This document shows, in pieces, positions 6,897-60,823 of a DNA stretch of 64,000 nucleotides (positions are counted from its first letter, which is position 1; each line of letters opens with the position of its first letter). The stretch is from an uncultured Bacilli bacterium (GTDB lineage: Bacteria; Bacillota_I; Bacilli_A; RF39; UBA660), in the NCBI GenBank assembly GCA_934141535.1, contig CAKPCH010000001.1, positions 79,341-143,340 on the forward strand, written 5' to 3'. The notes below the pieces were generated by a model. It was not told where the DNA came from. It searched no databases and saw only the letters and a list, made by a program, of their open reading frames with translations. The translations under genes were made by a program, and so were the position numbers.

Positions 6897-6959
6897 ATAT
6901 TTCACCATAATTATTATACTATATATTAATTTTTTAATAAACATCATTAATAAAAAAAG

Positions 6960-7713: not shown

Positions 7714-8002
7714 TGTTATCTACCCACTAAAATGTCTTAATGGTTAATTTTTACTCCCCACTGAATTATCTAGAGCCAATTTTATTTGCTCAAAGTGACT
7801 TCCCTCTTTCAAAAAAATCTAGTCACTAGTATTTTTTGTTTACAACAAAACATTCCACTGGAATATTTTGTTACTTGTTATTCTCACTTTATTTGTCTTT
7901 ATATTTTTATTATTTTTTCTATTATTTTAAATCCTATATCGTTTATTATATTATTTCTTCTATTGTTATTTATTCTTAATTTTTATTCTTTCTTTATAAC
8001 TC

Positions 8003-10717
8003 CTATTTTATCAAAGATGATGAGATTGTTATAACTGGACGGACACCAGGATCGCTCGCATAGCTGACGGCGCCGCAGCTCAAGCCGCCGCTACAGTGAA
8101 CAAACCACGCGTAGCTAGAGTCATCAGCATCAGGTGTTATTGTCCAATAACCATATACTCCTGATACTGGATGTGCTGTATCTATCAAATAATCATATAG
8201 CCATGTTGATAAACCTGAAATATATGAATTATTAAATGTTTTTCCAGAGGCAGTGGCTATTTGACTAGCACTTGGAAAACTCACTTCTACTCCTTCTTTA
8301 TTAAATATTTCCTTTATATGGCCTAAATAATCTTTTCCTGTTGGAGCATTTGAACCTGTTGCTGTTATATTTTTACATGTTGTGTTATCTGTTCCTCCAT
8401 CTGTACACCAAGCTAATCTATATGGTACATATGAATCTGTAAAATTTTCTTTCATGATTAAACTTACATTATCTTCTGAATTTCCAAGTACAAAGAATGT
8501 ATTACTATAACTATCTCCTACATCGCATGTATATTCATCTCCGTAATTAAAACTTCCACTTGGTACATTACCTGTTGTTGCTTCTGTTACTGGATTACAT
8601 ATTGGAGGTGCTACTAATGATGATTTAGGCACTTCTATTACTGGACGAACTCCATAGCTAGTACTACTAACATTACTTTTATTAAATTGGCCCAGAAAAT
8701 ATACATACCATGCATAATTTGTATTTGTACCAGCAGATGAAGAAGCTGTCCAATAGCCATACGTTCCATCAATATCGCCGTTATTTAAACAACCATAAGA
8801 TGTACAAGTTTTCATTGTTCTATCATATAGCCAACCATAACTACATCCTGTTGTATTACCATATTTACATGTATCACTTTGTCTCGTAAAATTTGTATCA
8901 AAAAAGTAATAATTAATAGTATTAGTAGCTTCATTAAAAGTTGAATAACCTGTAATTTTAGCTATTTCATTTGCCGTTATAAGTCTTGCATTAAAATTAG
9001 AATAATCTACTGTATAATTTGCTTGAGATGCTTGTGATGACTGATCAACAGTATAATTTGAAGGAGTATTAGTCCCCTTCCAACCGCTTGTATCTGTTTT
9101 AAGTTGCGTTAGTAACGTACTAGGTCCTGATCCAATACTTCCAGTTGAATTCCAAGCAATTTTTGCTGTTGTATTGTGATCCAATATTAAATTAATATTA
9201 TCTCCACCATCATCGTTAAATGCATAAAACTTCATACATCCTGATTTTACTCCTGTAGCGCTCTGTGATGCAGTATAATTCGTACAAACTTTTCCAGTAT
9301 CTACATTGAAATATACTACTTCTCCATTTGTGTAGTGTTTTGGTGCCTCTTTGATTATAATATCACCATTAACTCTCGGTACAGTCAATAGTTTAGTAGT
9401 CTCATCATATAGGTAATCCGTTCCTCTTGTTAATGCCACATCTCCCATAATAACTCTAGGAACAGATAAATTTATAGTTGCTGTATATTTATTACCTTCT
9501 ACCACTTCATTGATACAATCTGTACATGTCACTCCATCATATGTTACTTTAAATATTTGCTTATAGTTAAATTCTATATTAAAACTTTGTGGATCACTAG
9601 TTACTAAACTTTCGTCTATTCCATCTTTATATTTTATTGTTATATATATTTTTTTAGTTACACCATTTGTACAGTTATCATCATCACATACTGGCATTAC
9701 CTCACCATTATTATAGCCATCTATTGTATAATCTAAAACACTGTCAGATTTGAATGAAGATTTAGGAATTGTTATTACTGGACGGATTCCATTTTCAAGG
9801 CTTACAAAGTTAGCAGTCAAGGAACCATTCGAACCCATAATTCGTGCACCATAAGTGGCATTTTCAACAGGGGTAGATGTCCAATAACCAGTTACATCTG
9901 ATACTGGATGAATTGTTCCATCTAAATAATCATATAGCCATGTTGGTAACATCTCTTCTTCGTTCCCTCCCGCAGCATATAACTGATCATATGTTGGCAA
10001 CGTTATTTGTGTCTGAGATAAATTTGTCCAAGTTAATGTATAAGCTCTTAAAGCTTTATTTGCTGTTATTGGTCCTTTAGTATTATTACCATTGTCATAA
10101 TTTGTTCCTCCTGCTGCTATATAGTCTTCTTGTGTTACCCATGCAACTTTTGATTTGTCTGTTGATGATGCTGTAACTATATTACCATCACTTCCTACAT
10201 TTGCATTTAAAATTAAGCTTACATTATCACCAGAGTTTTCTACTACAAAGAATGTTTTAGGTGTACCATCTCCTACATCACATATGTATTCATCTCCTGG
10301 ATTATAATTACCATCAGGTAAATATCCTAATGTAGGATTTGTTACTGGAGTACATATTGGAGATTGTGTAAGTGCTCCCATTTTTACATTACCCAAGTTT
10401 GTTATATCTACTTCATATTTTACAGTTGAATTCTTATTTGGTAATACTATATCTCCAAATATATTAGATACGTTATATTCTTCAGTTCTTGCTATAGCGT
10501 TATTATCTGTAGAACTTACTCTAATACCAGTTAATCTTACTGTCTTATCTATTCTTATCATAGCTATATTTTTCATAACTAAACTTGCGCTAAATGAAGC
10601 AAATCCTATGGTTAAAGTTGTTACTAAAATAAAAATAGTAATAATTAACCCTTGGGTTAATTTCTTACTATTAATATTTTTGAAATTGTTAAAACCATAA
10701 TTGTCTTTTCTTTTCAT
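8003..10717 (-). CDS. large (904 aa) secreted/surface protein with a SipW-cognate-type signal peptide, an N-terminal TasA-like beta-module, Ig-like middle modules and three DUF1566/Fib_succ_major-like lectin-type modules each ending in G(V/I)RPVI
   Basis: N-terminus ...LTQGLIITIFILVTTLTIGFASFSASLVMKN has a charged n-region, an h-region and the AAF-like FASF motif. Repeated module ends are NGIRPVITIPKSSF, YGVRPVIEVPKSSL and PGVRPVITISSSLIK. The modules contain YWTSTP...AWYV hallmarks of the DUF1566 family. It is the last gene of the tasA-sipW-DUF5305 operon. Confidence 0.8.
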   Translation of the reverse strand: MKRKDNYGFNNFKNINSKKLTQGLIITIFILVTTLTIGFASFSASLVMKNIAMIRIDKTVRLTGIRVSSTDNNAIARTEEYNVSNIFGDIVLPNKNSTVKYEVDITNLGNVKMGALTQSPICTPVTNPTLGYLPDGNYNPGDEYICDVGDGTPKTFFVVENSGDNVSLILNANVGSDGNIVTASSTDKSKVAWVTQEDYIAAGGTNYDNGNNTKGPITANKALRAYTLTWTNLSQTQITLPTYDQLYAAGGNEEEMLPTWLYDYLDGTIHPVSDVTGYWTSTPVENATYGARIMGSNGSLTANFVSLENGIRPVITIPKSSFKSDSVLDYTIDGYNNGEVMPVCDDDNCTNGVTKKIYITIKYKDGIDESLVTSDPQSFNIEFNYKQIFKVTYDGVTCTDCINEVVEGNKYTATINLSVPRVIMGDVALTRGTDYLYDETTKLLTVPRVNGDIIIKEAPKHYTNGEVVYFNVDTGKVCTNYTASQSATGVKSGCMKFYAFNDDGGDNINLILDHNTTAKIAWNSTGSIGSGPSTLLTQLKTDTSGWKGTNTPSNYTVDQSSQASQANYTVDYSNFNARLITANEIAKITGYSTFNEATNTINYYFFDTNFTRQSDTCKYGNTTGCSYGWLYDRTMKTCTSYGCLNNGDIDGTYGYWTASSSAGTNTNYAWYVYFLGQFNKSNVSSTSYGVRPVIEVPKSSLVAPPICNPVTEATTGNVPSGSFNYGDEYTCDVGDSYSNTFFVLGNSEDNVSLIMKENFTDSYVPYRLAWCTDGGTDNTTCKNITATGSNAPTGKDYLGHIKEIFNKEGVEVSFPSASQIATASGKTFNNSYISGLSTWLYDYLIDTAHPVSGVYGYWTITPDADDSSYAWFVHCSGGLSCGAVSYASDPGVRPVITISSSLIK

Positions 10718-10727
10718 ATTTTATCAC

Positions 10728-11855
10728 CTATAAATCAACGCTTTTTACATAATATATATATAATACTTTACCATCCTTTACATAAAAGCAACATTTTTCA
10801 CTATTTATTTTAACATACATAATTGGTATTTTTAAATTATCTCTAACATCAAGTAATTCTTGAAATTTAGTAATCTTATATACGTCATGCTCTTTTAAAT
10901 CAGGTATACGATTAGTTTCAACTATTGTTCTATCATAATCATTTAATAATTTATTAACATAACTATTGTATTTATCTTTTTTTGGAAGTAATACTACTAA
11001 TAGTTTTATTAAATATATGAAACTTGCTAATCCTAATAATATTAATATTATGCCAGCTACAAAGAATGGTTTATTACCTATCATAGCACTTACAGTCTTT
11101 GTAGCACTACCATTTTTATTTGTATTTGATGCATCTATATTTATATTAATTTGTCTTGTTGAAAGTGGTATTGTTAAAGTAGATGAACTTGAATTGTTAT
11201 AATCTATACCAAATGCACTTTCTTTACCTAATGTATTTGTAATTAATTTAATAATTAATTTACTATCACAACTTACACCATATGTACTTTTAAATGTATT
11301 TGCTAAGTCATTATATTTATTATAATCAATTGCTATTGTTTTATCTAATGAATATCCACTAGCACTGTTTTCTAACCCTTTAACATTATCTTCTAATACA
11401 TAATCTTTTGTATATAGTATTTTACCTGAATTCCCTTCCGGAGTAATAACAAGGCTTGCTACTATTTTATAATCATGATTAATTGTAGATGTTCTATTTA
11501 CCATAAAATTATATTTAAATGTTACATTAATATAGTCAATTAAACTTGCTATATAAGTCATATTCTCATCCAAATATGGTGCTTCATAGAAGTCATTTGG
11601 TTTTAAATAAACTTTGTAACCTGTACTACTACTTTCTTGATAATTTACATAAACGTTCTTATTTCTATCTATTGATAAATTAATAAACATTACTGAGGTA
11701 ATTATCATGACTATAGTGAGAATTAAAGAGAAAGTAATTCTTGCGTTAAAGCTAATATATCTTTCTTTTTTCTTCTTTACAATTTTTTCAGTTACTTTCA
11801 CTTCTTCGTTATTAGTTTTCTCACTTTCTTTAATTATGTTTCCCTTTTTTTCCAT
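10728..11855 (-). CDS. DUF5305-like accessory membrane protein: an N-terminal TM anchor, a ~230-aa extracytoplasmic domain and a C-proximal TM
   Basis: 375 aa. TM helices at ~38-58 and ~268-290 (FFVAGIILILLGLASFIYLIKLLVVLL). Its position immediately downstream of sipW matches the sipW/tasA-associated DUF5305 genes of Clostridia. The family name is assigned from memory, not from a search. Confidence 0.55.
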   Translation of the reverse strand: MEKKGNIIKESEKTNNEEVKVTEKIVKKKKERYISFNARITFSLILTIVMIITSVMFINLSIDRNKNVYVNYQESSSTGYKVYLKPNDFYEAPYLDENMTYIASLIDYINVTFKYNFMVNRTSTINHDYKIVASLVITPEGNSGKILYTKDYVLEDNVKGLENSASGYSLDKTIAIDYNKYNDLANTFKSTYGVSCDSKLIIKLITNTLGKESAFGIDYNNSSSSTLTIPLSTRQININIDASNTNKNGSATKTVSAMIGNKPFFVAGIILILLGLASFIYLIKLLVVLLPKKDKYNSYVNKLLNDYDRTIVETNRIPDLKEHDVYKITKFQELLDVRDNLKIPIMYVKINSEKCCFYVKDGKVLYIYYVKSVDL

Positions 11856-11870
11856 CTTAATCTCTCCTTT

Positions 11871-13001
11871 TTACAATTCGCTTAGCATTACTGTTGGATA
11901 TCCTATAAAAGGTATTTGAACATTAACTATTCCCTTTATCATATCTTCAGTTATCTTATATCCATCTTGACTTGCATTAGCATCACCTTTAGTATAGAAA
12001 TAATGTTCACCATCTATATCAAGCACCTTAACAACTCTATGAACTATTACTTTATTTTCATACTCATAAGCAACTATGTCCCCTACTTTAATTTTATCGT
12101 AGTCTTTATCAATTTTCTTAATAATAACAACTGCTCCTCTATCAAATGTAGGACTCATTGATCCACTAGCAATCGCTACTGCTGTATATTTGAAATAACC
12201 ACTTGTAAAATAAGTAAGTACAACTACAAGTCCGAATAACAACGCATAAGAAATTATATTTATTTTATTATTACTTCTTGTCATTACCTCTTCGTTTAAT
12301 ACATCTTTAAATTCTCTTAATAATATTGTAAATAATATTATAGGAACTAACAAGTCAAATATTGACTTCATATATTCACTAAAGTTTGGAACTATAGGAA
12401 GTAAATAACTATATACACCAAGTACTAATCCAAGTAATAATGATGGCTTATAACCAGCATTTAAGCATATATACGTCTTACATAAATTACGTGCTATACT
12501 TGGAAGTAAATATAACCCAACAAACACTAATATGTTATATACTGAATCAAAATCAGCATAATATATAGTATTTGTTACATCAACAGTAATCAAAAGTATA
12601 GTCGTAAAAATTATTAATAATATATTTCCTTCGCTTTTCTGTAACAATTGATATCTTAAAAACTCACTTAATATTATAACTAATACTGTAGGAAGTATAA
12701 ACGTTGTAAATGATTTAAAAGTATAATAATTGTTATTATAAGCAAATCCTGAAAAGAAACCTATTATGTAATATATAACTAATACTATAATCAAATATAT
12801 TAATATTGATTTCATTACATTTGAACTGTTTTGGTGTTTATCTTTTTCAAAATTAAAATTAATTTTAAAAATGATAAGCGCTAAAACCATAAATAAAACA
12901 ATATAATAATTGCTTAGTATATTTTTAAAGAAACTGTTAAAAAGTAAAACTAAAAACAATGTTAATTCAATTATTAATATTTTCAAATAACTTTTTTTCA
13001 T
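11871..13001 (-). CDS. sipW: ER/archaeal-type signal peptidase I (SipW family, S26B) fused in-frame to an N-terminal ~240-aa polytopic (about 6-TM) membrane domain
   Basis: C-terminal 137 aa: MTRSNNKINIISYALLFGLVVVLTYF (TM), then SGSMSPT (catalytic Ser box), VGDIVAY, VHRV (catalytic His), TKGDAN and QIPFIGY. This is collinear with B. subtilis SipW. There is no stop codon between the membrane domain and the peptidase domain across 376 codons, in a genome where stops are frequent. Confidence 0.8.
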   Translation of the reverse strand: MKKSYLKILIIELTLFLVLLFNSFFKNILSNYYIVLFMVLALIIFKINFNFEKDKHQNSSNVMKSILIYLIIVLVIYYIIGFFSGFAYNNNYYTFKSFTTFILPTVLVIILSEFLRYQLLQKSEGNILLIIFTTILLITVDVTNTIYYADFDSVYNILVFVGLYLLPSIARNLCKTYICLNAGYKPSLLLGLVLGVYSYLLPIVPNFSEYMKSIFDLLVPIILFTILLREFKDVLNEEVMTRSNNKINIISYALLFGLVVVLTYFTSGYFKYTAVAIASGSMSPTFDRGAVVIIKKIDKDYDKIKVGDIVAYEYENKVIVHRVVKVLDIDGEHYFYTKGDANASQDGYKITEDMIKGIVNVQIPFIGYPTVMLSEL

Positions 13002-13028
13002 GTTTCACCTCTTAAACAATATTTAGAC

Positions 13029-13059
13029 TAGAGATAATAGACGAATTCTATTATCTCTA
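13029..13059. promoter_or_regulatory. intercistronic perfect 12-bp stem-loop between the TasA-like gene and sipW; candidate attenuator or mRNA-stability element
   Basis: tagagataatag (13029-13040) / ctattatctcta (13048-13059) with a 7-nt loop. No clean T-run follows on the coding (minus) strand. Confidence 0.4.
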
Positions 13060-13924: not shown

Positions 13925-14893
13925 ATGAAAAGAAAGATGAAAAAAAGACCTATATTTATTTTAATTTTTATAATTATATTTATAATTGTTGTAATAAGTT
14001 TTATAGTAAGAACTATTAATTATCATAAAACTTATGACTATAAGCTTGGAAAACAAGGTTTTAATAAAGAAGAAATAGTAGAACTAAAAAAACTAAAAGA
14101 TGATACATTAAACTATTTACTTACTATTACTTATAATAAAGATATAGTAAATATAATTAAAGAAAAATATTTCTTAGAAAAAAACTTAAGTAAATATATA
14201 ACTTATTTAGAAAAAAATAAAGATAAAGATATATCTGATATAATTTCTATTGTTAATGTGGGCGCAGATAATGATTTTTATACCAATACAAAGAAAACTG
14301 ATACTAATAAAGGTATACTTATGTTAACAAATAAGTATTATGGTTTAGATGAAACATATGATGATACAACTATGAAAGAAATAAGTTCTACTTATAGTTA
14401 TGGAAGTGATCAAATGTTAGTACCAGAAGCACTTAATGCATTTATTAATATGTTTAAAGCTGCAAAAAAAGAAAATCTAACATTAATTATAAACTCCTCA
14501 TATAGAAGTTATAAAGATCAAGATGAAGTTTATAATAAATATAAAGATACTAAAGGAGAAGAATATGCAGATTCAATAGCAGCCCGTCCTGGTTATTCAG
14601 AACATCAAACAGGACTTGCCATTGATATTCAAACATATGGTTCAAGAGCCGCTACATTTGAAGAATTCGATGAATTTAAATGGTTACAAAATAATGCTCA
14701 TAAATATGGTTTTATATTAAGATATCCTAAAGATAAAGAATATTTAACAGGTTACTCATATGAGTCATGGCATTATAGATATGTTGGAATTAGTGCTGCT
14801 ACATATATTAAAGAAAATAATATAACATTTGATGAATATTATGCATATTTTATAGAAGGTAAAGAAAATGAAAAAGAAACGACTAAAAATTAA
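13925..14893 (+). CDS. membrane-anchored D-alanyl-D-alanine carboxypeptidase, VanY/peptidase M15B family (paralog 1 of 3)
   Basis: N-terminal TM (PIFILIFIIIFIIVVISFIV). C-terminal M15B motifs ARPGYSEHQTGLAIDI and SWHYRYVG. RBS aatggtgataatATG. Confidence 0.8.
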   Translation: MKRKMKKRPIFILIFIIIFIIVVISFIVRTINYHKTYDYKLGKQGFNKEEIVELKKLKDDTLNYLLTITYNKDIVNIIKEKYFLEKNLSKYITYLEKNKDKDISDIISIVNVGADNDFYTNTKKTDTNKGILMLTNKYYGLDETYDDTTMKEISSTYSYGSDQMLVPEALNAFINMFKAAKKENLTLIINSSYRSYKDQDEVYNKYKDTKGEEYADSIAARPGYSEHQTGLAIDIQTYGSRAATFEEFDEFKWLQNNAHKYGFILRYPKDKEYLTGYSYESWHYRYVGISAATYIKENNITFDEYYAYFIEGKENEKETTKN

Positions 14894-16028
14894 AAAATTA
14901 ATATTATTTATACTTATAGTTTTAATAATACTTATATTATTAGTTTTATTTAATCATAAAAATAATAAAGATTTAAAATCTATTGGTTATAATGAACTAG
15001 AAATAAGTTCAATAGAAAAACTAACTAAATCAGAAATAAATGAAATAAGAAAATATAAATATAATAAAAATATAATATATATAATAGAAAGTGAAAACTA
15101 TAATCCAAATAAAATAAAATATTATTTAAAAGGAATTAATGAAAATAAAAAAATAGATTACTTAAAAATATTTAATTTAATAAATGATGATGAATTTAAA
15201 GAAAATAATTTTGATATATATTTAAATTTATTAAATAAATATGATAATTATAAAGGTATTTTAAAATATGTAAATGATTATTCTAGTAATAATATAAAGC
15301 TTGATAACACAACACTTTCATTTATAGAACAAGAATATTTTATTATAGATTACTTAGATAGATATATAAATTATTATAATGATAATAAAAATTTAGATTT
15401 TAAAGAAATAGTAACACGTGTTAATTCTAATCTAGATTATAAATTTTATGATGATTCTAAAGAAGCTGATTTATCTAAAGGAATGTATACTTTAGTAAAT
15501 AAATTCTATTATTTAGGCAAAGATTATGTACCAGATGATTTAGAAGTAATAGATGGTATATATGCAAGAGATAGTGCTAAAGCTGTTAAAGTTGCAGCTA
15601 CTACATTTAAAAAAATGGCTGATGATGCAAGGAATGAAGGCTTAACTATAAAAGTTACAACAGGATATAGAAGTTATAATTTTCAATCCACTTTATATAA
15701 TAACTATGTTAAAATAGATGGTGTAAAAGAAGCTGATACCTACTCTGCTCGACCTGGTTATTCAGAACATCAATTAGGATATTCACTAGATTTAACAAAT
15801 GCTAAAAACGTAGGATTTAGAGATTTTGATAAAACAAAAGAATATGAATGGTTAAGTAAAAATGCATATAAATATGGATTTATACAAAGATATCCTAAAG
15901 ACAAAGAATATTTAACAGGATATATGTATGAATCATGGCATTATAGATATGTTGGTGATGATATAGCAAAATATATCTATGAAAATAACTTAACATACGA
16001 AGAATATTATGCCTACTTTAAAAGATAG
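14868..16028 (+). CDS. membrane-anchored VanY/peptidase M15B family D,D-carboxypeptidase (paralog 2) with a long N/K-rich N-terminal extension
   Basis: SARPGYSEHQLGYSLDL and ESWHYRYVG motifs, and an N-terminal TM. The start overlaps the previous gene by 26 nt. Confidence 0.8.
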   Translation: MKKKRLKIKKLILFILIVLIILILLVLFNHKNNKDLKSIGYNELEISSIEKLTKSEINEIRKYKYNKNIIYIIESENYNPNKIKYYLKGINENKKIDYLKIFNLINDDEFKENNFDIYLNLLNKYDNYKGILKYVNDYSSNNIKLDNTTLSFIEQEYFIIDYLDRYINYYNDNKNLDFKEIVTRVNSNLDYKFYDDSKEADLSKGMYTLVNKFYYLGKDYVPDDLEVIDGIYARDSAKAVKVAATTFKKMADDARNEGLTIKVTTGYRSYNFQSTLYNNYVKIDGVKEADTYSARPGYSEHQLGYSLDLTNAKNVGFRDFDKTKEYEWLSKNAYKYGFIQRYPKDKEYLTGYMYESWHYRYVGDDIAKYIYENNLTYEEYYAYFKR

Positions 16029-16068
16029 TAAATGCTATCTTTTTTTCATATAATATAATGGTGATAAT

Positions 16069-16701
16069 ATGGAAAAAATAATTTATATAATATTATTATT
16101 AATATTAGAAAAAGATTTTTATACTAATATTAAAACAATAAAAAAAGTAGATTTAACTACTATAGTTAATAAAAATAATAAATTAGAAAAAAACTATGTT
16201 CCAGATAATCTAGAATACATAGATTTAAAATATTCTTGCAAAGATAAAATGCTTGTAAGTGTAGCACGTAAACAATTTGAAAAACTTGCTAAAGATGCTT
16301 CTATTGAAGGATATAATATAATAGCAGTTTCTGCTTATAGAAGTTATGATTATCAAGAAAAACTATATAATAATTATGTTCTTCTTAAAGGAAAATATAT
16401 GGCAGATGTAGCAAGTGCTAGAAGTGGACATTCAGAACATCAAACAGGCCTTGCTGTTGATGTTTCTGATATTACACTTGATTATGATAACTTTGAAAAA
16501 ACTAAAGAATTTACTTGGATGAAAAATAATGCATATAAATATGGATTTATACTAAGATACCCTAAAGCAAAATTTCATATTACAGGATTTAAATATGAGC
16601 CATGGCATTATAGATATGTTGGTAATGTTGTAGCACAAATAATACATAGTAAAAATATAACTCTAGAAGAATATGAAAAAGAGTTAAGAAATAACTCTTA
16701 A
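16069..16701 (+). CDS. VanY/peptidase M15B family D,D-carboxypeptidase (paralog 3, shortest)
   Basis: SARSGHSEHQTGLAVDV and EPWHYRYVG motifs. It uses the same aatggtgataatATG start context as paralog 1. Confidence 0.8.
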   Translation: MEKIIYIILLLILEKDFYTNIKTIKKVDLTTIVNKNNKLEKNYVPDNLEYIDLKYSCKDKMLVSVARKQFEKLAKDASIEGYNIIAVSAYRSYDYQEKLYNNYVLLKGKYMADVASARSGHSEHQTGLAVDVSDITLDYDNFEKTKEFTWMKNNAYKYGFILRYPKAKFHITGFKYEPWHYRYVGNVVAQIIHSKNITLEEYEKELRNNS

Positions 16702-17028: not shown

Positions 17029-17398
17029 AATTCCATAATCCTAACTTTCCTTTTGCTTTTATAGGTTTAGAATATTTAAATACATCTTCTAATACAAAAG
17101 CATATTCTTCTTTATATCCGCTTTTAGCATACACTATATTATCAATATTTCTTAACTTTTTAGCTAACTTTTCATCTACTAATATACAATCCTTTATTGT
17201 TGCTTCACCTATTATATAACCCATTTTATAATCTAGATTATAATCTTTAAATCTATCTATATCACTTTTACTATATGATAATGAAGAATGTATTAGTATT
17301 CTACCTCTATAATTAGTTTTCCAACTTCTAAATTCATATTTTTTATAACCTTCTATTATTAAACTAGCAAAAGGCTCTTTTATACTTAATACTTTCAT
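17018..17398 (-). CDS. ASCH (PUA-like) domain protein, tandem to the previous one
   Basis: 126 aa. MKVLSIKEPFASLIIEGYKKYEFRSW is a typical ASCH N-terminus. Confidence 0.55.
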   Translation of the reverse strand: MKVLSIKEPFASLIIEGYKKYEFRSWKTNYRGRILIHSSLSYSKSDIDRFKDYNLDYKMGYIIGEATIKDCILVDEKLAKKLRNIDNIVYAKSGYKEEYAFVLEDVFKYSKPIKAKGKLGLWNYEK

Positions 17399-17401
17399 AT
17401 G

Positions 17402-18319
17402 TTAAAATCCTCTTGAGGCGCCTCCACCACCAGATGAACCACCGCCTCCACTAAATCCACCTGATGAAAATCCACTACTTCCTCCACTAAAGAATCCACC
17501 AGTATACATTGAATCTGACGTTTTAATAAGCCCAGATATAAATAAAATAGGGTTAAATGGGAAAATGAGTGTTATTAAATTTATATTATTGGAAGACATT
17601 CCAAATATAAATAATATTATATATATAATAATATAAGATAAAATAGATAAAACTTTTACCTTACCAAAAGTATACTTTCTAATTAAATATCCAAATAATA
17701 AACCAATTAAAGCACCTATAATAGCTAGTGCAAATGAACTATCACTACTTGTACTAGGTACTGCTTCATTATAAGGAATATCTAAATTATTTAATTTAAC
17801 TATTTCAGAATAAAAAGCATCATATCCATTTTTTATTCCTTCATCAAATTTATCTTCTTTTAAATAAGGAATAATATATTCATCTATTAATCTACCAGTT
17901 TTACCATCTGGAAGAATACCTTCTAATCCATACCCTACTTCTACTCTAAACTTTCTATCTTCATATGAAAGTAATAATAAAAGTCCATTATTTTTAGAAC
18001 TATCCCCTATTTTAAAGTTTCTAAACAATTGTAAAGAATAATCTTCTATAGATAAACCTTCTAAATTTTTTACTGTAACAACTACTATTTGAGTACCATC
18101 TGCACTTTCAATTTTTTGACTCTGATTAATTATATAATTTTTAGTATCACTACTTAATATATTAGCATAATCATTAACATAAAAATCATTAGTAGGACTT
18201 ACTATAGCACTTACTTTAACTATAAATAATACATTAAATAAAATAAGAAGGATTAAATAATTTTTAATCCTATTCAAACGAAACATTTGGAACCTCATTA
18301 GCAGTACTCTTTGATTCAA
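17402..18319 (-). CDS. TPM-domain (YgcG/DUF477-type phosphatase-like) membrane protein with a Gly-rich C-terminal tail
   Basis: Signal/TM at the N-terminus. TPM core YVNDYANILS...IVVVTV...LLLLSYEDRKFRVEVGYGLEG. C-terminal TM and GGFSGGGGSSGGGG tail. It sits downstream of LemA, the classic LemA-TPM pair. Confidence 0.7.
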   Translation of the reverse strand: MNQRVLLMRFQMFRLNRIKNYLILLILFNVLFIVKVSAIVSPTNDFYVNDYANILSSDTKNYIINQSQKIESADGTQIVVVTVKNLEGLSIEDYSLQLFRNFKIGDSSKNNGLLLLLSYEDRKFRVEVGYGLEGILPDGKTGRLIDEYIIPYLKEDKFDEGIKNGYDAFYSEIVKLNNLDIPYNEAVPSTSSDSSFALAIIGALIGLLFGYLIRKYTFGKVKVLSILSYIIIYIILFIFGMSSNNINLITLIFPFNPILFISGLIKTSDSMYTGGFFSGGSSGFSSGGFSGGGGSSGGGGASRGF

Positions 18320-18836
18320 AATATGTTTTATCAGTAAAATTAAACATACGCGCTACTATATTTTTTGGAAAACTTTTAATAGTTTTATTATAATCACTAA
18401 CAGCATCATTATAATCTTTACGTGCTACAGCTATTCTATTCTCAGTTCCTGCAAGTTCATCTTGTAAATTTATAAAATTAGTATTAGCCTTTAAATCAGG
18501 ATAATTTTCTACTATAACATATAACCCGTTAATAGCACTCGTTAACTCATCATTAGCTTTTGCCATATCTTCTACAGTACTAGCTTTTGTTAAGTTTTCA
18601 CGTGCTCTAGTAATACTATTTATAACATTTTCTTCATGTGTTACATATCCTTTTACTGTATTAACTAAGTTTGGAATTAAGTCAGCTCTTCTTTCTAATT
18701 GAACAGAAATATCAGATAATTTTTGACTAACTGTCTCATCCTTACTCATAATAGAGTTATAAACTCCTCCTAACATCATAACAAATATAAGGAAAATTCC
18801 TAATAAAACTGCAATAACTTTTACTCCTTTACTCAT
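18270..18836 (-). CDS. lemA: LemA family membrane protein
   Basis: N-terminal TM followed by the conserved LemA core QLERRADLIPNLVNTVKGY...ENRIAVARKDYNDAV. Confidence 0.8.
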   Translation of the reverse strand: MSKGVKVIAVLLGIFLIFVMMLGGVYNSIMSKDETVSQKLSDISVQLERRADLIPNLVNTVKGYVTHEENVINSITRARENLTKASTVEDMAKANDELTSAINGLYVIVENYPDLKANTNFINLQDELAGTENRIAVARKDYNDAVSDYNKTIKSFPKNIVARMFNFTDKTYFESKSTANEVPNVSFE

Positions 18837-18887: not shown

Positions 18888-19880
18888 TTATAAAATTACT
18901 CCAAATATAATAGCAAGCATACTAGCAAGTACTCCTACTAAACAAAATATTTTAACTATTGATCTTTCACTATATCCTTTATATTCAAAAGCATGATGAA
19001 TAGGAGTTATTGAAAATAATCTTTTATGTGTTAATTTATAATAAAATCTTTGTATTAAACAAGTTAATGTTTCTATAACAAATACAATACCTATTAATAT
19101 TAATAATACTTCATGACGAGTTAATATTGCAATACCACCCATAGTAGCACCGAGTGCTAAAGAACCTGTATCTCCCATAAATACTTTAGCAGGATTTAAA
19201 TTAAACATTAAAAATCCTATTAAAGATCCACATAAAGAAAAACAAAAGAGTGCTACTTCTTCATAACCTTCAAGCCATCCTGTATTATAACTAATTATAC
19301 CAAGAGTTAAGAATGCTATAAATGAAAGACTACCAGCAAGTCCATCTAATCCATCTGTTATATTTACTGCATTTGAACTAGATACAAGTACAAGTAAAAT
19401 AAAAAGTCCATAAAACCATCCTATATCAACTTTTATACCTAGTGTATGTACCCAAAGAAGTGGCTCATTACCACTTCTCATAAATAAATAAAAGAATATA
19501 ACAGCAATCACTACTTGCATAAAAAACTTGGAATTTTCACTTAATCCTGCATTATTATGTCTTTTTATTATTAAAAAGTCATCTATAAATCCAATTAGAG
19601 AATAAAATATAAATGTTAAAATAACTATTAAAATAGTATCATTAAACTTTATCTTATTAAACAAAATCATAAATAACATACAAAATAATGTAGGTATTAT
19701 AAATATTAATCCCCCCATAGTAGGAGTACCTTGTTTATTTTTATGTCTTTCTTCTAAATATGTACTAAGTCTTTGACCTGCTTTTAATTTTCTTAAAATT
19801 GGTAAAAGTATAAATCCTACACATATAGATAGTATTAAACTTAACATCATAACAAGTACTGCTTTAGTAAGTAGTATCAT
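18888..19880 (-). CDS. mraY: phospho-N-acetylmuramoyl-pentapeptide transferase
   Basis: TPTMGGL, IGFIDD, NITDGLDGLA, VFMGDTGSLALG and PIHHAFEYKG motifs. About 10 TM segments. 330 aa. Confidence 0.85.
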   Translation of the reverse strand: MILLTKAVLVMMLSLILSICVGFILLPILRKLKAGQRLSTYLEERHKNKQGTPTMGGLIFIIPTLFCMLFMILFNKIKFNDTILIVILTFIFYSLIGFIDDFLIIKRHNNAGLSENSKFFMQVVIAVIFFYLFMRSGNEPLLWVHTLGIKVDIGWFYGLFILLVLVSSSNAVNITDGLDGLAGSLSFIAFLTLGIISYNTGWLEGYEEVALFCFSLCGSLIGFLMFNLNPAKVFMGDTGSLALGATMGGIAILTRHEVLLILIGIVFVIETLTCLIQRFYYKLTHKRLFSITPIHHAFEYKGYSERSIVKIFCLVGVLASMLAIIFGVIL

Positions 19881-44206: not shown

Positions 44207-45478
44207 TTACTTTATAACTGATTTAGATAATGTTATTACTGGACGGATACCAAATTTATTTGAAAGTCCAACGTTATAATAATCTATATTGCTATTATTA
44301 CCAACATACCATGCACCAATAGTAACTGTATGTGGAGTACTAGTCCAATATCCATCTACACCTGTTACTGAATGTAAAGCTCCAGATAAATAATCAGTTA
44401 ACCATTTTTGTTCTAAAGTTGGATAGTCTAAATAATTCTTTCCATCAGCGGTTGCTATTTGACTAGCACTTGGAAAACTCACTTCTACTCCTTCTTTATT
44501 AAATATTTCTTTTATATGCCCTAAATAATCTTTTCCTGTTGGAGCACTACTTCCTGTTGTACTTATATTTTTACAAGTTGTGTTATCATCTTCACCATCT
44601 GTACACCAGGAAAGTGTTGTTGGTATATATGAATCTGTATAGTTTTCTTTCATGATTAAACTTACTGTATCTGTATTATTTTCTAGCACAAAGAATGTAT
44701 TTGTGTAACTATCTCCTACTTGGCATGTATATTCATCTCCGTAGTTAAAACTTCCAGTAGGTACGTTTCCTGTTGTGGCAGTAGTTACTCCTGTACAGAT
44801 TGGTTCAGAAGGTAGTGTTGGCATTCCACTTAAACTTGTTGATCCATATGTTAAATAAATACTACCAAATTTTATTGTAAATGGGCCATCGGCTATTGCT
44901 GAACCACTTGTATATTCTATTGTTATTTTTACTAATTCACTATTACTTTTCTTTAATACATGATTTGTTATATTTAGAGTTGTATCAGTATAAGAAGTAC
45001 TTAATACTGTTGTTGTTACTTTTATTCCATTACATGCTGATTCTACCATTGAAGAACTAGTACCTTCTCCAGCTACACATTCTTTAAATACTGACTTACC
45101 ACTAATATTATTAAATACTACACTACTTAAATATGCATCATAACTTCCTTCATTTCTTGCATAAAATGTATACTCTACTTTTTCTCCAGGTGCAGTAAAT
45201 GAAGCACTTAAATTTTTAATTGTTGGATTACCACTATTATCTATTATTGGTGTTCCAGCTTGTGCATTCCCTGTTTTTGTTACACTTACATTAGTTGTTG
45301 AAAGTGATGTACTACTACTTGAAAATACTACTTTAAAATTTCCTGAATCTGGTGTAATTGTCGCATTACTTTTTACTGTTAGAGAACTAGAAAAAGCTGC
45401 AAAAGCTATACTTAAACCTAATACGCTTATTATAGTTATTATTAATATTAATGTTGTATTTTTTTTATTATATCCCAT
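44207..45478 (-). CDS. TasA/camelysin-like protein with a SipW-cognate signal peptide and one C-terminal DUF1566/Fib_succ_major-like module
   Basis: N-terminus TLILIITIISVLGLSIAFAAFSSSLTVKS. TasA-like core FTAPGEKVEYTFYARNEGSYDAYL. The C-terminal ~200 aa are near-identical in design to the modules of the giant paralogs (CTGVTTATTGNVPTGSFNYGDEYTC ... YWTSTP ... GIRPVITLSKSVIK). Confidence 0.75.
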   Translation of the reverse strand: MGYNKKNTTLILIITIISVLGLSIAFAAFSSSLTVKSNATITPDSGNFKVVFSSSSTSLSTTNVSVTKTGNAQAGTPIIDNSGNPTIKNLSASFTAPGEKVEYTFYARNEGSYDAYLSSVVFNNISGKSVFKECVAGEGTSSSMVESACNGIKVTTTVLSTSYTDTTLNITNHVLKKSNSELVKITIEYTSGSAIADGPFTIKFGSIYLTYGSTSLSGMPTLPSEPICTGVTTATTGNVPTGSFNYGDEYTCQVGDSYTNTFFVLENNTDTVSLIMKENYTDSYIPTTLSWCTDGEDDNTTCKNISTTGSSAPTGKDYLGHIKEIFNKEGVEVSFPSASQIATADGKNYLDYPTLEQKWLTDYLSGALHSVTGVDGYWTSTPHTVTIGAWYVGNNSNIDYYNVGLSNKFGIRPVITLSKSVIK

Positions 45479-52639: not shown

Positions 52640-54667
52640 TTAATTTAATTCTGATTTAGGAATTGTTATAACTGGACGAATGCCATCATAGTTGGCATCG
52701 ACATCTTGACTATATAATGACCCATCACCTGTCACATCATAAGCTCTCGCATAATTTCCAGTAGAATCCTCAGAATACATAGAATATGAAATGGTCCAAT
52801 AACCAAATACTTCTGATACTGGATGAGTTGCTTCCTCTAAATAATCATGTAGCCATGTTGGTAAATTTTCTAACAAATCATCATTGTCAACATCAACAGT
52901 TAAACCTAAAGCATTTGCTATCTGATCTGCTGTTGGTAATGTTATTTGAGATATATTTGTCCAAGCCGATGTATATTCTTTCAATGCATTAGTAACTGTT
53001 ATTGGTCCTTTATTAGTTCTAATATATCTATTCCAATCACTTTCTGTCCCTCCGGCAGCTATATAATCTTCCTTTGTTACCCATGAAACTGTTGATAGAT
53101 TCGTTGAAGATGATGTTACTGCTTTACCATCTATTCCTACATTTGCATTCATTATTAAACTTACATTATCTCCTGAAGTTTCTAGTACAAAAAATGTTTT
53201 TGAGTCACCATCGCCCACATCACATGTATATTCATCTCCATAAGCATAATTTCCTGTTGGAACACTACCTGTAGTTGCGGTTGTTACTGCTTTACATATA
53301 TAATTTGAACCTTCACTAATTGTGATATCCCCATTAACATTAGGTATTGTTAACAATTTAGTAGCTTCATCATATGTATAATCTATATCTTTTGTTAATA
53401 TTATATCTCCCATAACAATACTTGGAGTACTTGAATTTATAGTTGCTGTATATGTATTACCTTCTATCGATTCTGTATTACAATTAGTACAAGTTATTCC
53501 ATCGTATGTTACTTTAAATATTTGTTTGTAATCAAATCCTATATTAAAAGTTTGTGGTTCACTAGTTACTAAACTGTCACTTATTCCATCTTTATATTTT
53601 ATTGTTACATATATCTTTTTAGTTGCACCATTTGTGCAGTTGTCACCATCACATACTGGTATTGCTTCACCATTACTATAACCATCTATTGTGTAATTTA
53701 AACTAGTATCTGCTCCAAATGCTGATTTAGATATTTTTATTACTGGACGAACACCGTAACTTCTAGAATCACTGACGGAGGGGGTGCCGCCGTTCAAATA
53801 GCCGTTATAGTGAACAATCCACGCGCTGCGAGAGAAATTACCAGGCGTTATTGTCCAATAGCCACTTACGCCTGTTACTGGATGGGTTGTTTTATCTAAA
53901 TAATCATATAGCCATGTTGGAAAACTAGAACTTTTATTTCCTGCTGCTTTATATATTTGAGCTTTTGCAGGAAAACTTACTTCTACTCCAGATTTATTAA
54001 ATATACTTTTTATATGTCCTAAATAATCTTTACCATCAGGAGCATTACTTCCAGTTGCGGTTATATTTTTACAAGTTTTATGACTGGAACCACCATCTGT
54101 ACACCAAGCTGTTGTTTTAGGTACATAAGAATCTGTATAGTTTTCTTTCATAATTAAACTTACTGTATCTGTATTATTTTCTAGCACAAAGAATGTATTT
54201 GTATAACTATCTCCTACTTTGCATTTATATTCATCTCCATAATTAAAACTTCCAGTTGGTACATTGCCTGTTGTAGCTGTAGTCACTGCTGTACAGATTG
54301 AAGAGTGTGTAACTGGAGGAAGTGCTCCCATTTTTACATTACCCAAATTTGTTATATCTACTTCATATTTTACATATGAATCTTTACTTGGTAATACTAC
54401 ATCTCCAAATATATTAGATACGTTATATTCTTCAGTTCTTGATATAGCACCTCCATTTGTAGAATTTACTTTTATACCAGTTAATCTTACTGTTTTATCT
54501 ACTCTTATCATAGCTATATTTTTCATAACTAAGTTTGAACTAAATGAAGCAAATCCTATAGTTAAACTTGTTACTAATATAGCACATATTACTATTAAAT
54601 ATTTTGAGATCTTTTTTCTCTTTATAAAACTAAAATTATTAAATCCATAATTATTTTTATGCCTCAT
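52640..54667 (-). CDS. large (675 aa) SipW-cognate-signal-peptide surface protein with two DUF1566-like modules and Ig-like middle modules
   Basis: N-terminus YLIVICAILVTSLTIGFASFSSNLVMKN. The N-terminal module is shared with the other giant paralogs (VDKTVRLTGIKVNST...VKYEVDITNLGNVKMGAL). Module ends YGVRPVIKISKSAF and DGIRPVITIPKSELN. Confidence 0.8.
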   Translation of the reverse strand: MRHKNNYGFNNFSFIKRKKISKYLIVICAILVTSLTIGFASFSSNLVMKNIAMIRVDKTVRLTGIKVNSTNGGAISRTEEYNVSNIFGDVVLPSKDSYVKYEVDITNLGNVKMGALPPVTHSSICTAVTTATTGNVPTGSFNYGDEYKCKVGDSYTNTFFVLENNTDTVSLIMKENYTDSYVPKTTAWCTDGGSSHKTCKNITATGSNAPDGKDYLGHIKSIFNKSGVEVSFPAKAQIYKAAGNKSSSFPTWLYDYLDKTTHPVTGVSGYWTITPGNFSRSAWIVHYNGYLNGGTPSVSDSRSYGVRPVIKISKSAFGADTSLNYTIDGYSNGEAIPVCDGDNCTNGATKKIYVTIKYKDGISDSLVTSEPQTFNIGFDYKQIFKVTYDGITCTNCNTESIEGNTYTATINSSTPSIVMGDIILTKDIDYTYDEATKLLTIPNVNGDITISEGSNYICKAVTTATTGSVPTGNYAYGDEYTCDVGDGDSKTFFVLETSGDNVSLIMNANVGIDGKAVTSSSTNLSTVSWVTKEDYIAAGGTESDWNRYIRTNKGPITVTNALKEYTSAWTNISQITLPTADQIANALGLTVDVDNDDLLENLPTWLHDYLEEATHPVSEVFGYWTISYSMYSEDSTGNYARAYDVTGDGSLYSQDVDANYDGIRPVITIPKSELN

Positions 54668-58108: not shown

Positions 58109-60823
58109 TTAATTTATTAAATCTTTTGAAATAGTTATTACTGGACGGACACCATACTCGCTAGAATCGTTAACGTTAGAATAATACAAAATATTAGAAT
58201 TATCACCACTCCATGCAACGTTATTAATAGCAGCATTAGGCGTTGTTGTCCAATAGCCATATACTCCTGATACTGGATGTGCTGTATCTATTAAATAATC
58301 AGATAACCATTCTGGTAAACCTCTAATATAATTTTCATCGTCAAATGACTTACTAGAAGCAGTGGCTATTTGACTAGCACTTGGAAAACTCACTTCTACT
58401 CCTTCTATATTAAATATACTTTTTATATGACCTAAATAGTCTTTTCCAGTAAGAGCATTAGATCCAGTCGCTGTTATATTTTTGCAAGTTGTATTATCTT
58501 CTCCTCCATCTATGCACCATGCCAAAGTTTTTGGGACATATGAATCTGTGAAATTTTCTTTCATGATTAAACTTACTGTATCACTAGAATTTTCTAATAC
58601 AAAGAATGTATTGCTATAGTTGTCGCCTACCCGACAAGTGTATTCATCTCCATAATTATAACTTCCACTCGGTACATTGCCTATTATTGCTTCTGTTACT
58701 GCTTTACATCCATATTCTTGAGGTGCTACTACTGACCTAGGTACTTCTATTACTGGACGTAAGCCTATACTACCACCATATATATCATAAGTAGACATTG
58801 AATAATCTGTCATTACTGTATACACTGAATTAGTATCTAATACAAACTGTGTAGCGGTCCAATAGCCTAGATCTGAAGTTCCAGATAACCATTGATAATT
58901 ACAGCCTGTTGTAATATCAGTTTCAGTTTCTTCATCATATTTGCAAGTATCACTTGGTTCAGATGTATTAGTATCAAAATAGAATACTCCTTCTTCATCT
59001 GTAGATACATCAAAAGATGTATTACCAGTAATTCTAGCTACTTCTTCTGCTGTTATTAATCTTGCTTTATATCCTGTATAATCTATTGTATAATTAGGAT
59101 GACTATAATTTGTTGGAGTTAATGTACCTTTCCAAGACGATGTGTCAGTTTTTAATTGATCTAATAAAGAGGTAGGACCATTTGTAACATCATCACTATC
59201 ATTCCAATCTATAAGTTGCGTGGTATTATGATCTAATATCAGATTGACTTTATCTCCACCATCATCATTGAAAACATAAAATTTCATACATCCTGATTTT
59301 ACTTCTGTTTCACTTTGAGATTCAGTGTAATCTGTACAAACTTTTCCAGTATCTACATTAAAATATACAATTTGGCCATTAGAAATTTTTCCAGTGTCTT
59401 CTTTGACCTCTTCTTTAATTGTAATATCGCCATTAACATTAGGGATTGTTAATAGTTTAGTGGTTTCATCATATGTATAGTCAGTATCTTTTGTTAATAA
59501 TGTATAACCCATTGTTACTCTAGGATTTGTTAAACTAATAGTTGAAGTATAAGTATTGCCTTCTACTACTTCACTTATACAATCTGTACAAGTTACTCCA
59601 TCATATGTTACTGTAAATATTTGCTTATAATCAAACCCTATATTAAAACTTTGTGGTTCACTAGTTACTAAACTTTCATCTATTCCATCTTTGTATTTAA
59701 TTGTTACATATATTTTTTTAGTTACACCATTTGTGCAGTTATCACCATCACATACTGGTATTACATCACTTTTATTATAATCATCTATTGTATAATCTAA
59801 ATTATTATTTAAGCCAAACTGTAATTTTGATAAAGTTATAACTGGGCGTACTCCAATACCAAGATCACTAGCTACAGTACTTCCATATCCTAAATGTTCT
59901 GTCGAAATAGTTCCATTTTCAACACAATATGCATAAGTTTTTGAAGCATCTAATAATTTAGAAGTCCAATAACCTAAGACCTCATCAACAACATGTTTAT
60001 TTTCAAACGCAGAATCATATGCTGTATAATCATATAGCCATATTGGTAAACCTGACATTTTATCGCCTGCTGCTGTAGATACTTGATCTCTTGTTGGCAG
60101 TGTTATTTGAGATGATGATATATTTGTCCAAGTTGATGTATATTCTCTCAATGTTTTATTTGCTGTTAATGGGCTCATATTAATATTTTCATTCCATTCA
60201 CTTTCTGTTCCTCCTGCAGCCAGATAATCTTCTTTCGTTAACCAAAATACCTTTGATTTATTTGTTGAAGATGATGTTACCATTTTTCCATCTGTTCCTA
60301 CATTTGAATTCATTATTAAACTTACTGTATCTCCTTTGTTTTCTAATACAAAGAATGTTTTTTCTTCACCATCTCCTACATCACAAATATATTCGTCACC
60401 AACTACAAATTTTCCTTCTGGTACATTACCAGTTGTTGCTGTAGTGGCTGGCATGCATATTTGATTAGAAGTAAGAGCACCCATTTTTACATTACCCAAG
60501 TTTGTTATATCAACTTCATATTTTACATATGAATCTTTACTCGGTAATACTACATCTCCAAATATATTAGATACGTTATATTCTTCAGTTCTTGATATAG
60601 AATTGCCACTTGTAGAATTTACACTAATTCCTGTTAATCTTACTGTCTTATCTACTCTTATCACAGCTATACTTTTCATAACTAGGTTAGCACTCGATGC
60701 AGCAAATCCTATAGTTAAACTTGTTACTAATATAGCACATATTACTATTAAATATTTTGAGATCTTTTTTCTTTTTATAAAACTAAAATTATTAAATCCA
60801 TAATTATTTTTTCTATGCCTCAT
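58109..60823 (-). CDS. large (904 aa) SipW-cognate-signal-peptide surface protein with three DUF1566-like modules; mosaic paralog of 8003-10717 and 52640-54667
   Basis: N-terminus YLIVICAILVTSLTIGFAASSANLVMKS. Module ends IGVRPVITLSKLQF, IGLRPVIEVPRSVV and YGVRPVITISKDLIN. The middle module YFNVDTGKVCTDYTESQSETEVKSGCMKFYVFNDDGGD is shared with the 8003-10717 paralog. Confidence 0.8.
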   Translation of the reverse strand: MRHRKNNYGFNNFSFIKRKKISKYLIVICAILVTSLTIGFAASSANLVMKSIAVIRVDKTVRLTGISVNSTSGNSISRTEEYNVSNIFGDVVLPSKDSYVKYEVDITNLGNVKMGALTSNQICMPATTATTGNVPEGKFVVGDEYICDVGDGEEKTFFVLENKGDTVSLIMNSNVGTDGKMVTSSSTNKSKVFWLTKEDYLAAGGTESEWNENINMSPLTANKTLREYTSTWTNISSSQITLPTRDQVSTAAGDKMSGLPIWLYDYTAYDSAFENKHVVDEVLGYWTSKLLDASKTYAYCVENGTISTEHLGYGSTVASDLGIGVRPVITLSKLQFGLNNNLDYTIDDYNKSDVIPVCDGDNCTNGVTKKIYVTIKYKDGIDESLVTSEPQSFNIGFDYKQIFTVTYDGVTCTDCISEVVEGNTYTSTISLTNPRVTMGYTLLTKDTDYTYDETTKLLTIPNVNGDITIKEEVKEDTGKISNGQIVYFNVDTGKVCTDYTESQSETEVKSGCMKFYVFNDDGGDKVNLILDHNTTQLIDWNDSDDVTNGPTSLLDQLKTDTSSWKGTLTPTNYSHPNYTIDYTGYKARLITAEEVARITGNTSFDVSTDEEGVFYFDTNTSEPSDTCKYDEETETDITTGCNYQWLSGTSDLGYWTATQFVLDTNSVYTVMTDYSMSTYDIYGGSIGLRPVIEVPRSVVAPQEYGCKAVTEAIIGNVPSGSYNYGDEYTCRVGDNYSNTFFVLENSSDTVSLIMKENFTDSYVPKTLAWCIDGGEDNTTCKNITATGSNALTGKDYLGHIKSIFNIEGVEVSFPSASQIATASSKSFDDENYIRGLPEWLSDYLIDTAHPVSGVYGYWTTTPNAAINNVAWSGDNSNILYYSNVNDSSEYGVRPVITISKDLIN

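Follow-up and report, generated by a model that had tools for sequence, protein, structure and literature searches.

What has placed a short GC-rich patch, dominated by codons that end in C, in the tip of one module of an otherwise AT-rich gene? The question is raised by a 64-kb stretch of DNA (referred to below as the window) from an uncultured gut bacterium of the Bacilli, which has a mean G+C content of 24.3% (standard deviation of 0.074 for the G+C fraction of sliding 60-nt segments) and the content of an ordinary chromosome of a low-GC Firmicute. The patch lies in gene 52640-54667 and has a counterpart in the paralogous gene 8003-10717; an earlier note on this DNA had taken patches of this kind for variable regions (VRs) of a diversity-generating retroelement (DGR), and the two are called VR2 and VR1 here. 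Judged by its codons and by where they vary, VR2 is very likely a DGR-written variable region. It is most appropriately classified as a remote DGR target of a new host lineage, and its rewriting has probably ceased. The type of mutagenesis is a known one and involves no new mechanism; the new part is the host lineage.

The composition of VR2 departs strongly from that of its surroundings. Its G+C content is 0.51, and its G+C content at third codon positions (GC3) is 0.55 versus 0.13 for the whole gene. If the expectation is conditioned on the amino acids of the tip itself and on the codon usage of 39 other open reading frames (ORFs), 2.9 of its 33 codons are expected to end in G or C, compared with 18 observed (P<5e-6), and the same result was obtained for VR1 (P<5e-6). 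When all nine module tips of the window were compared, as the earlier note had proposed, VR2 and VR1 stood out (VR1, 0.56), with a GC3 of 0.03-0.27 for the other seven tips and of 0.09-0.15 for the whole genes. Among all 60-mers of the window, VR1 provides the richest (8037-8096, 0.68) and VR2 the third richest (53774-53833, 0.58); the second (17407-17466) lies in the gene of a TPM-domain protein (17402-18319), where it encodes a Gly-rich C-terminal tail, and has no relation to the patches.

The part of VR2 that keeps to the frame of known DGR templates reads tct cgc agc gcg tgg att gtt cac tat aac ggc tat ttg aac ggc ggc acc ccc tcc gtc. The letters quoted previously for the two patches were found unchanged, namely gcg tgg att gtt cac ... 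gtc agt gat from 53840 to 53770 on the minus strand, and gcg tgg ttt gtt cac tgt agc ggc ggc ttg agc tgc ggc gcc gtc agc tat in gene 8003-10717. A recount also agreed with the figure of eight differences over the nine codons after cac, five of which are A in VR2 and G in VR1. This pattern had been read as a bias of A versus G; the variation does fall at template adenines, but substitution by any base is the more accurate description. The codon-by-codon alignment of the two patches holds up to acc/gcc, beyond which an indel of two codons is followed by divergence, and the cac that had been assigned to a conserved 5' flank is GGC, AGC or TAC in other alleles, so that this codon is variable.

The specificity for adenine was assessed with stand-in templates from the DGRs of three related gut Bacilli (L022, L090 and L095, described below), which define a gap-free core of 48 nt with 19 template-A columns and 29 others. 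VR1 and VR2 of the window differ in 11 columns, ten of which are template-A (Fisher p=1.2e-4). Within the VR1 family, comprising the window copy, the alleles L001 and L004, and a VR of protein P0033 in L092, 18/18 variable columns are template-A (Fisher p=2.6e-12), and the variation is distributed 9/9/0 over the three codon positions, leaving third positions unvaried. Mismatches between VR2 and the template consensus occur at 10/19 A columns and at 4/29 non-A columns. An nhmmer profile of the related templates recovered VR2 (53833-53743, E=5e-7), VR1 (E=2e-6) and otherwise two weak tips in the window. The proposal of a DGR-type variable region thus holds with respect to the template-A differences, the confinement of variation to codon positions 1 and 2, the profile matches of both patches and the fold class of the module (DUF6273/DUF1566), and it falls short in that the window contains neither a reverse transcriptase (RT) nor a template repeat (TR).

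Complete DGRs with templates of this kind are present in related bacteria. A profile search with the module in species-representative genomes, a set that does not include the source species, yielded 79 loci in metagenome-assembled genomes (MAGs) of uncultured gut 'Bacilli'/'Tenericutes', with at most 48% identity, and a DGR-type RT adjoins the module gene in two of them (L022 and L062). Tracing the RT family into ENA contigs revealed three further cassettes of bAvd, RT, TR and VR (L090/L091, L093/L094 and L095/L096). RT, TR and VR were thereby found in four related gut Bacilli (L022, L090, L093 and L095), with bAvd recorded for all but L022. TR-to-VR substitutions number 19 at template A and 0 elsewhere in L093, 21 and 1 in L095, 16 and 5 in L090, and 13 and 7 in the decaying element of L022. 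The templates read ...TCT AAC AAC GCT TGG AAY GTN AAC TAT NAY GGN AAC YTG AAC AAC AAC ... GGY GTY CGY CCA G/ATTYC, which corresponds to the window patches in frame, with A at the positions where the VR bases vary, and the targets of these DGRs belong to the same module family as the modules of the window. In L090, L093, L095 and L022, TR and VR are alike up to GGYGTYCGYCCAG, after which the TR continues with ATTYC and the VR with TTATMAC. The motif ggtgttcgtccag, which follows VR2, corresponds to this 3' end of TR/VR homology and thus resembles an initiation-of-mutagenic-homing boundary; it also closes all nine modules of the window, diversified or not, and therefore a plain coding constraint applies to it as well.

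The cassettes of L090, L093 and L095 lie directly upstream of ParA-ParB, and in a further species (L097, 7144-10011) this site is empty, FtsH directly adjoining ParA. They comprise, in this order, an ORF of 139-141 aa with a weak MutS_I match, bAvd, RT and TR, and their target is a pilin-like (N_methyl) protein (L090, 9275-11300; L093, 5960-7882; L095, 5281-7400). The DGR of L022 looks decayed, with an RT split into two ORFs, a template 18 nt shorter than the VR and seven non-adenine mismatches; this cassette (9152-13037) is flanked by 53-nt direct repeats of 96% identity (9152-9204 and 12985-13037). A similar template together with an RT was also found in an unrelated viral contig of 50% G+C, and therefore the template frame is generic to this class of DGRs. 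In the Bacteroides phage Bacuni_F1, for which a DGR with a DUF1566 target has been published (Hedzet et al. 2021, PMC8143477), the region between avd and RT aligns with the template that the VR1 alleles imply. DUF1566-type targets are one main DGR target class, and remote targets are documented (Wu et al. 2018, PMC5758913).

The protein context is in keeping with such a target. Four paralogous genes of the window encode nine modules, each of which closes with G-[VIL]-R-P-V-I. The middle module of gene 8003-10717 matches DUF6273 in Pfam (PF19789, E=6e-11, above the cut-off) and, below threshold, Lcl_C (DUF1566); the VR2 protein had no match in Pfam, its type of module remaining under the thresholds. 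An AlphaFold model of the VR1 module (pLDDT 95.7) retrieved phage DUF6273 and DUF1566 proteins from BFVD with Foldseek (E down to 2.5e-5, probability 1.0). The sequence search of the PDB gave nothing significant, and a marginal match to an IgA peptidase of Thomasclavelia ramosa was the only result of the PDB searches; viral contigs yielded no member of the module family. On the strength of the model, the module is predicted to be of the DUF6273/DUF1566 (C-type-lectin-like) fold class, and VR2, which ends four codons before the last module strand (RPVI), is the predicted exposed ligand-binding tip. The 675-aa protein that carries it starts with a long hydrophobic signal (MRHKNNYGFNNF...TIGFASFSS), from which we infer a secreted or surface protein. 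The long hydrophobic N-terminal signals of the module proteins, their signal-peptide shape and an adjoining signal peptidase suggest that these proteins are exported and processed. Orthologs of the 675-aa protein with 96-100% identity are present in 16 human-gut metagenome sequences (ENA), some of them from Hadza and Nepal samples. The features of the window are compiled in Table 1.

Table 1. Features of the window, with those of the VR2 gene first
Feature	Positions	Strand	Remarks
Gene of the module protein with VR2	52640-54667	minus	675 aa; two DUF6273/DUF1566-like modules, from ORF and translation
VR2, tip of module 1	53753-53851	minus	codons 273-305, ITPGNFSRSAWIVHYNGYLNGGTPSVSDSRSYG
VR2, part in template frame	53774-53836	minus	C-ending, GC-rich; from codon alignment to the VR1 family and the L022/L090/L095 templates
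VR2, 3' third	53756-53773	minus	agt gat tct aga agt tac; host-like A/T-ending codons
Boundary motif ggtgttcgtccag	53743-53755	minus	encodes G-V-R-P-V
Tip of module 2, gene 52640-54667	52682-52792	minus	mild GC3 excess; 9/37 codons G/C-ending vs 3.1 expected, P=0.0008
VR1, tip of C-terminal module, gene 8003-10717	8045-8140	minus	GC 0.57, GC3 0.56
Apparent recombination or gene-conversion tract with VR1	8048-8300	minus	recipient, the 904-aa gene; donor, a 425-aa paralog elsewhere on the chromosome
Three-module paralog	58109-60823	minus	first and middle tips with ordinary AT-rich codons
C-terminal tip of the three-module paralog	58151-58246	minus	8 G/C-ending codons vs 3.0 expected, P=0.003
Single-module paralog, 423 aa	44207-45478	minus	tip 44249-44341 ordinary AT-rich; 3 G/C-ending codons vs 2.9 expected
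SipW/archaeal-type signal peptidase I	11871-13001	minus	TIGR02228 (E=5e-27) and Peptidase_S26; shares a gene string with the VR1 gene
Other genes			thymidine kinase, XerC/D-like recombinase, PriA, VanY x3, MraY, LDH, PBP, PolA, AddAB, DnaB_2/DnaI, YunB

Several observations weigh against a DGR origin of VR2. An RT was not detected in the 64-kb window, either by a scan for YxDD/IGNxxSQ motifs or with a hidden Markov model of 110 DGR RTs run against six-frame ORFs of at least 50 aa, and a template repeat was not detected there with blastn-short and both VRs or with the nhmmer template profile. The search for RT and template that the earlier note had called for remained equally negative beyond the window, as no cognate template, RT or Avd was found for the source species by any route. 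The adenine test uses the templates of other species as stand-ins, and when the strain alleles of VR2 are taken alone the signal is weak, with template-A at 4/5 differing columns (p=0.07). Moreover, these allele differences are part of a block of ordinary divergence, which runs on downstream, and they could be due to recombination. VR2 also departs from the template frame, with the four non-A mismatches in the core and many more in its 3' third, which is off frame at third codon positions when compared with the VR1-family frame ACC GTC NNC NNT NCG NNC NNT NNT GGT. The module of VR2 is internal to the protein and not C-terminal. Lastly, CAC (His) occupies the template-AAC position after GTT in 4/8 VRs of the species (window 53812-53814 and 8090-8092; L092), a frequency that exceeds independent adenine mutagenesis and therefore implies shared ancestry or selection.

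The search for a cognate element was extended in several directions. A degenerate VR/TR pattern and template-specific patterns gave 0 matches to a source-species template in collections of genome, viral and metagenome contigs. The RT clusters P0220, P0144 and P0174 are real DGRs, but they come from other species and have templates that disagree with the window VRs; none of the related DGRs is the cognate element, since their templates mismatch fixed positions of the window VRs. A search with ParB for the site upstream of ParA-ParB returned one candidate recorded in both NCBI and ENA, which proved to be the empty site of L097, from another species. Two paralog contexts of the same species, L087 and L092, contain further VRs and no RT. 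In L092 (Hadza NODE_107), four more VR-type tips (11150-11251, 17115-17216, 18280-18381 and 19302-19409) have no RT within 10 kb; two are in 425-aa proteins and two in pilin-like N_methyl proteins.

Is VR2 still being rewritten? Among the 16 members of the ortholog cluster, its tip occurs in only three alleles (IVHYNGYLNGGTP, ..GGTT and LVHYSGYLNGTTT), and strains with differences in other parts of the gene have the same allele. At the DNA level, 1-6 of 99 nt of the tip differ among strains versus about 2% outside the tip, and the allele of L006/L007 is 1 nt apart from that of the window. The flanks of the island have host-like codons and are 98-100% conserved among strains. Thus, VR2 is not hypervariable among otherwise near-identical natural strains. 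DNA folding detected no hairpin in the 60 nt after the boundary of VR2 (z=+0.7) or VR1 (z=+0.25); the VRs of L090, L093 and L095 have a downstream hairpin (z from -1.2 to -2.0). Three features expected of a DGR target were therefore looked for and not found in the case of VR2, namely an RT in its vicinity, a hairpin downstream of it and high variability from strain to strain. VR2 is probably rarely or no longer rewritten, and current diversification is probably absent or rare, because the region is near-invariant among strains, its 3' third has host codons and no downstream hairpin is present. The departure of the 3' third from the frame would, we infer, explain the low variability of VR2. On a longer time scale, the first-module tips of distant homologs (P0008, P0007, P0002 and P0003) are very different on conserved flanks, which argues that rewriting has taken place at the VR2 position in the course of the family's history. 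The writing is arguably fairly recent, since the strong GC3 island has not yet returned to the host composition (GC3 0.13).

It could be proposed instead that VR2 is an actively diversified remote target, still rewritten by a DGR elsewhere in the genome, and that the few alleles result from consensus assemblies and selection. In favor of such a scenario, the chromosome of the species has multiple dispersed VRs with a common frame (VR1 of the window, one in L087, and three or four in L092), comparable to multi-target chromosomal DGRs (PMC5758913), VR1 of L001 and VR1 of L004 differ at template-A positions only, and the distant homologs P0008 and P0007 of the VR2 gene have quite different tips between conserved flanks. 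However, continued rewriting is hard to reconcile with a single VR2 allele that is common to strains differing elsewhere and with the distance of 1 nt between L006/L007 and the window, and the off-frame 3' third, the lack of a downstream hairpin and the failure to find an RT also speak against it. We regard an active target as unlikely.

Recombination between paralogs is a second process to be considered, and for VR1 its traces are clear. The VR1 gene of the window and its L001 allele have 0 differences over 2400 nt and then 50 in the last 300 nt. Window positions 8377-7951 are 100% identical to the 3' block of the 425-aa paralog in L087 (6893-8170, adjoining PGK), the crossovers lying within flanks of 77 and 104 nt in which the VR1 gene does not differ from L087. 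A reciprocal chimera is represented by P0026, and other strains have VR-type patches in other modules or genes (L005, 4735; L006, 2406; four in L092). An assembly chimera as the source of the VR1 mosaic is unlikely, the flanks of 77 and 104 nt being shorter than the MEGAHIT k of 141 and reciprocal chimeras having been obtained from independent samples. Taken at the level of sequence, these data point to gene conversion as a process that moves VR blocks between paralogs. The VR1 mosaic, the reciprocal chimera and the varying module composition at one locus argue that much of the strain-to-strain variation is block exchange among paralogs. Part of the allele variation thus reflects block recombination or gene conversion between paralogs rather than new retro-mutagenesis, and it is superimposed on tips with a DGR signature.

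Could recombination alone be sufficient? According to this alternative, blocks are exchanged among paralogous cassettes and the DGR pattern is the inherited trace of a long-lost element. It would accommodate the block of at least 250 nt with VR1 that is identical at two paralogous loci and mosaic relative to another strain, together with the reciprocal chimera, the confinement of VR2 allele differences to blocks of clustered divergence, the strain-dependent module composition at one locus, and the empty DGR site of L097 and decaying DGR of L022 in relatives. Nevertheless, exchange explains how blocks spread and not how NNC codons with fixed third positions originated, nor does it explain that L001 and L004 differ solely at template-A sites within one block type. 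Recombination as the sole process is thus distinctly unlikely. Horizontal transfer of a GC-rich segment, or selection on amino acids or codons, either of them without a retroelement, is extremely improbable: the patch is indeed GC-rich in an AT-rich genome and rich in Gly, Ser and Asn, but the island of about 65-100 nt stops at the module tip between host-like flanks and does not, as the earlier note had considered, reach past it, the excess of G/C-ending codons survives conditioning on the protein sequence, the differences follow the template-adenine columns of real DGRs, and no near match was found in phage records.

A DGR origin of VR2 would imply the following course of events. An RT would copy an adenine-rich template, in which AAC/AAT codons stand between GC-rich fixed codons (GCG TGG .. 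GTT .. GGC .. TTG .. ACC GTC), bases would be misincorporated opposite the template adenines, and the resulting cDNA would replace the tip of the module. The outcome would be NNC/NNT codons with fixed third positions, that is, a GC-rich island in a gene of 24% G+C. RT, Avd and template would be encoded at another site of the genome and act in trans, unless they have been lost. Homologous recombination, which was demonstrated for VR1, would be a second process that moves VR-bearing blocks between genes and strains, and it would account for the variation in the sampled strains. It is possible, though rather unlikely, that both processes form a system of two tiers, in which an unseen or intermittent DGR writes the tips and recombination among paralogs spreads, swaps and fixes them, internal modules included. 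If this were true, orphan VRs far from an RT would persist as a library of reused cassettes, even where the retroelement has been lost.

The comparison with known systems places the patch among DUF1566-type targets (CLec2, 'category d'), for example, Legionella pneumophila LdtA and that of Bacuni_F1 (PMC5758913; PMC8143477). The VR is likewise at the tip of a module that ends with G-V/I-R-P-V, and the AAC/AAT template frame, the adenine-specific variation, the fixed third positions and the exported or surface target (predicted here) are shared. In contrast to these DGRs, the window patch is without RT, Avd and template within 64 kb, VR2 occupies an internal module, in a protein with two modules, and is near-invariant among strains, and the host belongs to uncultured gut Bacilli of 24% G+C. 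With the bAvd-RT DGRs of related gut Bacilli the window VRs share the template family, the 3' boundary GGYGTYCGYCCAG and the module family, and the genome composition is similar; unlike the window VRs, those DGRs have adjoining pilin-like (N_methyl) targets, a C-terminal VR and a small downstream hairpin. The multi-target DGR of Treponema denticola, which comprises TvpA and seven remote targets (PMC5758913), is similar with regard to the dispersal of several VRs with a common frame over the chromosome, at a distance from any RT, but its targets have a C-type lectin (CLec) fold of the FGE-sulfatase type, and there RT and template are known. Finally, the copying of tip-bearing blocks between paralogous loci via short identical flanks resembles antigenic variation by gene conversion (pilE/pilS, vlsE), with the differences that neither partner here has the look of a silent cassette, each resembling a full-length expressed gene, and that the block diversity has a DGR signature.

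For annotation, the patch is a marker of the predicted ligand-binding tips in a family of large surface proteins that has so far lacked annotation; its host lineage, uncultured human-gut Bacilli, is poorly known and was encountered almost solely in ENA metagenome assemblies. With respect to method, it shows that a DGR target can be recognized from composition and codon pattern without an RT within 64 kb, which is useful for fragmented MAGs. The joint occurrence of a near-static VR, decayed tips and the transfer of blocks between paralogs makes the locus a case for how DGR-written diversity is kept, shared and lost, and the block transfer is the most interesting side result.

The remaining tips of the window are of two kinds. 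Three of them have a mild excess of G/C-ending codons (58151-58246, 52682-52792 and 9788-9877; 8-9 vs about 3 expected, P from 0.0008 to 0.003), and these may be old VRs that are drifting back to the host composition; the other four have an ordinary content of such codons. The 'third weaker patch' of the earlier note is the second of the three, and its excess is mild but real; its strain alleles read DANY, DTNY and DTDY. The designation 'non-diversified copies' is appropriate for the tip of gene 44207-45478 and for the first and middle tips of gene 58109-60823, but not for the C-terminal tip of the latter, with its mild excess. The locus upstream of DnaB_2/DnaI (window, 58109-60823; L005, 3895-6558; L006, 1581-4937) encodes a module protein of 904, 887 or 1118 aa depending on the strain, and whole modules have been swapped or added there among strains. 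Elsewhere in the window, three genes of VanY-type D-Ala-D-Ala carboxypeptidases follow one another (13925-16701). Between the VR1 gene and priA, L001 (6043-6384) and L004 (6090-6386) contain a fragment of an ISL3-family transposase, and the corresponding site in the window is a spacer of 1 kb (6948-8002).

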